Below are positions 48,554 to 48,988 of a stretch of DNA of 60,133 nucleotides, piece by piece. The notes beneath the pieces were generated by a model, which ran no database searches, had not been told where the DNA came from, and saw only the letters and a program-made list of their open reading frames with translations. Every line of letters starts with the position of its first letter. Position 1 is the stretch's first letter. The position numbers and the translations under genes were made by a program. Origin of the DNA: Schmidtea nova (lineage: Eukaryota); NCBI GenBank assembly GCA_044892505.1, contig CM097884.1, positions 18,972,001-19,032,133 of the forward strand, in the 5' to 3' direction.

Positions 48554-48988
48554 AGTAGACAGATGTGTGCACTCTGGAACAAAAACATATGACGTCATCG
48601 ATGAGTTATAGCCAATCAAAATCAAGTAGACCCGGAGGTACTTTTTTTTGCGAGCTCCCCTTAATTTTTTAGAGCCCCCTAATTTTTTTTACGCACACAC
48701 GCATACACGATGAGTCATAAAAATTTATTTTTAATTTTTAAGGTCAATTTAGGAACAAATTATGAGGGCAACTTAAGGTGTTAAATAAATGTTACATAGT
48801 TACACACACAATTTTTATGACTCATAGCGCGTGTGTGTGTAAAAAATTTAAAGGGGGGTGCTAACAAAAACAAATAAGGGGGGCTCGTGAAAAACAACAA
48901 ATTAAGGGGGGTCTCGCAAAAATATTAAGGGGGTTACTTATCGATGACGTCATATGTCTTTGTTCCAGAGTGCACACATCTGTCTACT
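48554..48988. mobile_element. 435-bp non-autonomous element with Polinton termini
   Basis: 49-bp TIRs with one mismatch starting AGTAGACAGATG; flanks TTGGTT / ATGGTT (5 of 6 match, 6-bp TSD-like). Confidence 0.9.

Follow-up and report, generated by a model that had tools for sequence, protein, structure and literature searches.

A 435-bp gene-less element with two Polinton-type ends in the genome of Schmidtea nova, a possible short non-autonomous Polinton derivative

MITEs are short, non-coding elements with conserved tips, a TSD and a hairpin, and an N in a Repbase family name marks a family as non-autonomous. The length of Polintons has been given as 15-25 kb (PMC6431247). One account of vertebrate Mavericks describes their movement as inferred, particles not having been observed, and their size as constrained to about 17 kb, a capsid-like limit; the copy numbers per genome that it gives have a median of 8 and a maximum of 287 (PMC8097293). 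Dependent families have been named in zebrafish, namely Polinton-1N1_DR, Polinton-2N1_DR and Polinton-4N1_DR, at 15469, 11092 and 10436 bp (PMC9341512; the names also appear in PMC9341505), and Anolis apparently has no dependent Polinton families according to the accessible part of PMC3014272.

The element described here occupies positions 48554..48988 (435 bp) of a 60,133-nucleotide stretch of the Schmidtea nova genome, referred to as the window (GCA_044892505.1, contig CM097884.1, positions 18,972,001 to 19,032,133, forward strand), and consists of two Polinton-type ends without genes. Our favoured reading, to which we assign a probability of about one half, is that it is a short chimeric, non-autonomous Polinton/Maverick derivative that moved as a unit with the aid of helper functions.

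Structure of the element and its Polinton relatives

The element is made up of the following parts.

48554..48602, plus strand: left 49-bp TIR, beginning with AG, 48/49 identical to the right end, with the 35-bp end motif at one mismatch
48940..48988, minus strand: right 49-bp TIR, terminating in CT, 48/49 identical to the left end
48554..48779, plus strand: left arm, collinear with the Polinton end at 32506
48780..48988, minus strand: right arm, with the tip and module order of the left arm and a different subterminal sequence
48862..48935, minus strand: array of four diverged C-run modules, which looks private to the locus

The 49-bp TIRs proposed in the first-pass annotation were borne out, with 48 of 49 positions identical and AG..CT termini; the two ends mismatch at position 31 and then from position 50 onward. 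The interior had also been called largely palindromic, which is true only loosely: aligned arm against arm, the outer tips agree in 50/52 columns and the inner symmetry is weak (30/59 and 62/97 columns). A gapped self-alignment of the whole element gave 69.5% identity. Folded as a single strand, the element reaches -116 kcal/mol (z = -16.8), and none of 100 shuffles was equally stable. None of its six frames is free of stops for more than 47 codons, and it encodes neither a protein-primed PolB nor a retroviral-like integrase. The MITE-like traits present are shortness, lack of coding capacity, TIRs and the capacity to form a hairpin. An Rfam scan of 47500-50300 gave no match.

The left arm reads, from the outside inward, as tip, C-run modules, AC-rich stretch, TGAGTCA motif and the beginning of inner tandem repeats. 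The putative arm junction at about 48779 was set where similarity to the 32506 end stops. The right arm has four C-run modules, compared with two on the left and a single one at the 32506 end, and those of the right-arm array are identical to one another at 16/23 to 21/28 positions. Nine of the 13 TGA[GC]TCA sites in the window, which we take to be of AP-1 type, fall either within the element or within the final 250 bp of the two Polintons (clusters at 15598-15728, 32452 and 48590-48952), and two of the four TGACGTCA sites, presumably CRE motifs, fall within the element's TIRs.

The Polinton sequences of the window with which the element was compared are these.

32304..32506, minus strand: end of Polinton 2; nothing else in the window is as close to the left arm
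27684..32060, plus strand: Polinton-2 remnant, in which a pair of ORFs has homologues among the accessory ORFs of Polinton 1, in conserved order
188..15771: Polinton 1, a complete-looking element with its right terminus at 15771 and its left end beyond the window

Similarity to the Polinton-2 end at 32506, first noted over about 100 bp, was confirmed and extends further, to about 226-230 bp. BLAST aligned element positions 1-100 with 32506-32403 at 86.5% identity and positions 157-226 with 32369-32304 at 73.6% identity. By successive aligned segments the left arm matches the 32506 end in 45/52, 50/59 and 51/70 columns, and the inner columns of the right arm match it in 27/63 and 37/70. The two tips of the element resemble each other (50/52) more than either resembles the 32506 end (45/52). 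The window contains just four copies of the 35-bp end motif, one at each of the Polinton termini 15771 and 32506 and one at either end of the element; 100 shuffles produced none. By sequence, then, the tips of the element are Polinton tips of the same genome. The termini of Polintons 1 and 2 were assigned without TIR pairing, their left ends lying outside the window or having been lost.

Polinton 1 carries genes for a protein-primed PolB, a protease, a double-jelly-roll capsid protein, an integrase, an A32-like ATPase and a TBP-like protein (Pfam). The capsid match falls below the curated Pfam cut-off, and the PolB assignment comes from homologues, about 60% identical, that carry PF03175; comparison of the PolB part with solved structures gave no match. 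The TBP-like gene lies at 11939-12406 on the plus strand (E 1e-13). The integrase (9553-10621, minus strand) is read in two separate ORFs, one with the rve part and one with the chromodomain part, and this copy of Polinton 1 is therefore probably defective. The two accessory ORFs of the Polinton-2 remnant match those of Polinton 1 at 38% and 47.5% by tblastn, and tblastx also supports the relationship. A Penelope-like insertion lies between them (GIY-YIG match at 30485-30901), and no core Polinton genes were seen for Polinton 2 within the window. Polinton-end-like motifs lacking an AG terminus were also present at 33100-33175, possibly another decayed Polinton end, and nearby sequence is similar to 38979-39033. 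Scans of viral contigs and metagenome contigs with the end-motif pattern found nothing, and searches for related Polinton loci from which the TIR length of the lineage could be gauged returned none.

The window holds several other kinds of sequence. Penelope-like copies (RT, GIY-YIG) that are 92-98% alike lie at 30216-31214, 36504-38289, 52653-53266 and 59138-59795; one is inside the Polinton-2 remnant and one forms a 231-bp perfect palindrome. A tightly packed gene block on the plus strand (15772-24500) has a strong A skew (AT skew about 0.42-0.53) and contains ankyrin and TRAF/MATH genes; its first ORF adjoins the Polinton-1 terminus and appears to be cut by Polinton 1. A second skewed block, of broken ORFs, lies at 41700-45500 on the minus strand, where the two ORFs tested had no family match, and 55699-57354 (minus strand) contains pieces of the reverse transcriptase and integrase of an LTR-type element. 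Immunoglobulin-domain ORFs are also found in this AT-rich window and, with the Penelope-like and TRAF ORFs, indicate DNA that is probably from an animal. Twelve window proteins compared with PHROGs gave no match.

Insertion site and the proposed split reading frame

The sequence around the element was examined by comparing 47900-50100 with the contigs of four sequencing runs, which come from one study with at most three samples and possibly include the source sample. The flanks divide as follows.

47900..48553: left part of the target repeat, multi-copy, with its left edge at or before 47900
48989..49086: remainder of the target repeat, to the right of the element, adjoining the left part in contigs of empty sites
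49087..49305: a different repeat, much more abundant, that begins abruptly at 49087
48548..48553, plus strand: left copy of a probable 6-bp TSD, 5/6 match, where the empty-site joints are located
48989..48994, plus strand: right copy of the probable 6-bp TSD, differing at its first base

Among the 15 joints listed (of 104), five skip the element. The main one, from 48552 to 48994, was found in all four runs at depths of 1840.5, 92.6, 132.2 and 156. Empty sites, which the first-pass annotation had proposed to look for in reads, were thus seen at paralogous positions in 4/4 runs of the one study. At these paralogous sites the flanks are joined without it, which makes the element an insertion with respect to the repeat family; it sits in one copy of a dispersed, multi-copy repeat. 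The left part of this repeat was represented by many contigs about 85-95% alike in addition to the empty-site joints, and searches with it found no protein family and no homologue.

The repeat beginning at 49087 is distinct from the target. Before 49087, loose ends occurred in all four runs and depth stepped about 10- to 30-fold, and the depth of 49087-49305 reached 1.1 million in run X1. Part of this repeat matches the ends of Penelope-like copies in the window; positions 49168-49332 are 81% identical to 59332-59178. Farther along, an uninterrupted 175-aa proteasome alpha-subunit ORF occupies 49592-50119 on the minus strand; its summed contig depth in X1 was about 100,000-240,000 compared with about 30 for a single locus, and it is probably a piece of a host gene carried by a very abundant repeat.

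The boundaries of the insertion admit more than one reading. The 6-bp TSD-like flank claimed for the element holds at five of six positions, a match with a chance probability of about 1% at the local composition. The empty sites correspond to a net skip of 440 and not 441, and a 4-bp reading is also compatible: with boundaries T..A at 48553-48989, one base longer at each end, self-BLAST and the flanks give a perfect 4-bp duplication. A 5-bp TSD was considered and rejected, as it agrees with the net skip of 440 and is contradicted by the flank letters (2/5). The 4-bp alternative needs one change fewer, and with T..A ends the element could be a MITE of another DNA-transposon superfamily whose ends merely look Polinton-like; the Polinton-1 end is likewise followed by A. 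The 32506 end, however, is CT followed by G, and about 230 bp of the element is collinear with a terminus that lies downstream of Polinton accessory genes. Moreover, Polintons make 6-bp TSDs (PMC8097293; PMC3014272), and we regard an origin from another superfamily as the least probable of the explanations weighed here.

The first-pass annotation also proposed that the element splits an ORF, with these two halves.

48991..49167, minus strand: 5' ORF half, 59 codons with a TTG start, probably not a gene
48358..48547, minus strand: 3' ORF half, 62 codons plus stop, probably not a gene

The arithmetic of the rejoined frame is correct for this copy (179 + 190 = 369 bases, 123 codons), and the part of the claim that found no support is that a gene is interrupted: the halves are out of frame at the empty sites with known letters, no homologue was found, and codon periodicity is lacking. 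The three of the five listed empty-site joints for which the letters are known all have a net skip of 440, and the ORF join needs 441; the join therefore rests on a one-base difference in this copy. For the other two the letters between are not known, and the joint 48552>48993 is outside the three firm ones. The 5' half starts inside the separate abundant repeat that begins at 49087. Pfam, the only resource against which the 5' half was scanned, had no match for either half or the surroundings. Homologue searches with the left flank, in the frame of the first-pass annotation and in the most protein-like plus frame, were blank, and weak Atlas look-alikes of the left flank were found at 0.86. 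A chi-square test of codon position gave p values of 0.70 and 0.07, compared with 3e-5 and 2e-15 for real genes. Counting against the verdict that this is not a gene, frames that stay open for 59 codons or more on each side of the break turned up in only 6 of 5000 shuffles. The split ORF is probably not a gene, with some residual doubt. A coding frame on the plus strand of the target repeat was likewise considered and dropped, as no frame clearly stood out and the homology searches were blank; the test used 22 of the 40 variant places listed (of 254), those excluded being a mixed one in the flank, one within the element and 16 that lie past 49086.

Abundance of related ends and origin of the element

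Contig depths were summed over bins of the element and are expressed relative to the bin 48862-48935; these summed depths are not copy numbers. That bin was at single-locus depth in all four runs (26.3, 2.83, 2.91 and 2.11, compared with 34, 2.8 and 6.1 for contigs exactly matching the window). The tip bins were 1846-3876 times as deep, the right one including 21 bases of abundant flank. Left-type sequence at element position 54 reached 3340-6389 times the depth of the single-locus bin, compared with 59-105 times for the variant of the left arm at position 83 and 42-195 times for the right-arm module at positions 273-278. The ten joints among the 15 listed (of 104) that do not skip the element comprise eight inside it, representing relatives with different subterminal spacing, and two in the proteasome ORF. 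Joint 48633/48846, seen in three of the four runs, places the right-type inner module next to an outer arm of the left type, and joint 48868>48944, seen in all four, connects the right inner module to the tip through other letters. No loose ends at the element's termini were among the 24 listed (of 1980), and the contigs of the four runs revealed no further insertion flanked by a TSD of its own.

The exact 435-bp variant is rare or single, and the ends related to it are very numerous. Among these relatives, a smaller group looks to share the arm variants of the element, and the outer right array looks private to it. Because 48862-48935 is at single-locus depth, the abundant tips do not show amplification of the exact element, and they may belong to long elements.

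The depth data bear on an alternative that the first-pass annotation had itself named, a single copy left by deletion in situ: the single-locus depth of 48862-48935 in 4/4 runs partly bears it out. On this account the Polinton that inserted, with a 6-bp TSD, was full-length or several kilobases long. Its interior would then have been lost at the site, for instance through slippage between short repeats of the two arms, and what is left would be a one-off remnant. The inferred junction falls at the start of the inner tandem repeats of the 32506 end, and Polinton 2 in the window is also a remnant. Degradation is common elsewhere: 96% of vertebrate Maverick loci are described as degraded, and as intact Mavericks can have TIRs down to 46 bp (PMC8097293), a 49-bp TIR with unlike inner arms could have been inherited from a full-length parent. 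In C. elegans, Polinton fragments that consist of TIR sequence alone have been described (10.1101/2024.01.15.575659). A parent with two fixed ends, however, predicts similar abundance of both end types, and position 54 and the right-arm module differ as given above (3340-6389 vs 42-195 times).

The arms themselves limit this account further. The tips are identical at 48/49 positions and the inner arms at 92/156 (59%; Fisher p 1e-8, a descriptive, post hoc value). Over the TIRs and TSD combined, 2 of 55 paired positions are different (95% interval 0.4-12.5%), compared with 64 of 156 over the inner arms. As the divergence of the arms far exceeds that of the TIR and TSD, the arms were already unlike at insertion, and a parent with long perfect TIRs is therefore excluded as the source of a deletion product. 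Near-identical tips joined to inner arms at 59% favour a short chimeric unit over deletion in place, which we consider a possible but somewhat less probable origin.

A third account is that the assembly collapsed a longer element with long inverted ends to two tips. The window is a gapped scaffold with seven runs of N, several of which lie beside palindromes, and none of the contigs listed spans the element or was seen to bridge its centre. Against a collapse, all bins of the element, the private right-arm array included, have depth in 4/4 runs, the arms are too dissimilar to be collapsed copies, and the element contains no N. We judge such an artefact to be quite improbable.

In the favoured reading, about 226 bp of one end type and about 209 bp of another would form a gene-less derivative that arrived at about its present size. 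The 49-bp tips would have served as integrase and protein-priming sites for the enzymes of a full-length Polinton, and these enzymes would have produced the 6-bp duplication; later, a single base would have changed in this duplication and another in the left TIR. The tips may have been kept alike by selection or re-matched in end-to-end (panhandle) copying, with the inner arms escaping either process. A panhandle repair model is discussed for adenovirus and PRD1, as a structure without direct evidence (PMC11886824). A recent copy-back (snap-back) origin was considered and rejected, the arms being only 59% alike inside the tips; an old one is conceivable. At 435 bp, movement would most likely have been intracellular and not in a capsid, given the size constraint on intact elements. 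The similar recurrence of the position-83 variant and the 273-278 module, together with joint 48633/48846, fits a small subfamily, and the depth of the tip bins, set against the copy numbers of vertebrate Mavericks, hints at many short or truncated ends. The imperfect TSD and empty sites one base longer than a clean 6-bp model count against movement as a short unit.

If the element moves at 435 bp, integration would be independent of genome-sized DNA, and if it moved at this size, about 50 bp per tip would be the Polinton cis signal, in line with the first-pass proposal that ends by themselves allow mobilisation in trans; a new MITE class would then be tied to self-synthesizing elements. A broader proposal, that the genome contains a large population of gene-less Polinton MITEs of less than 500 bp, copied and integrated in trans through tips of about 50 bp and outnumbering full-length elements, appears rather unlikely to us; were it true, it would define a minimal cis signal and a capsid-independent, intracellular route of transposition. 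If the element is a mere remnant, it is an ordinary relic that nonetheless maps the conserved part of a Polinton end.

Comparison with known systems

A sub-kilobase Polinton family was not found in the literature searched, which excluded Repbase and most subscription journals, and the accessible parts of PMC5499653, PMC11296320 and PMC8504770 added nothing on short Polinton families. The element shares AG..CT termini and TIRs with autonomous Polintons/Mavericks (polintoviruses, adintoviruses), and its probable TSD (5/6) would have their 6-bp length. Its 49-bp TIR is within the range of 46-1447 bp given for intact vertebrate Mavericks, whereas its length of 435 bp compares with 12.7-24.6 kb for those elements (PMC8097293). 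Its first six bases are neither (AGT)2 nor (AG)3, and the start AGTAG is common to it and Polinton 1.

Dependent elements offer closer parallels. Like the element, zebrafish Polinton-1N1_DR, -2N1_DR and -4N1_DR are dependent Polinton-derived families, at 24 to 36 times its length (PMC9341512). The polB-less polintons of insects are described as TIR-flanked, defective and apparently still mobile, which makes complementation in trans plausible; unlike the element, they are variants of at least 12 kb with other genes and TE cargo (10.1101/2025.02.07.637071). The TIR-only Polinton remnants at eri-6/7 of C. elegans are, like the element, gene-less terminal sequence; they are treated as remnants and rearrangement products of a 744-bp TIR and not two-ended short insertions with a TSD (10.1101/2024.01.15.575659).

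With cut-and-paste MITEs the element has in common a length of less than 500 bp, the absence of genes, conserved tips, a diverged interior, a probable TSD and a strong hairpin. The partner of a MITE is a transposase element, whereas here the putative partner is a self-synthesizing element with integrase and PolB. MITEs also form many dispersed copies of uniform length, each with its own TSD; for the element, the contigs listed show abundant tips, variable subterminal joints and an array that looks private. If it moved at its present size, the element acts like a Polinton MITE.
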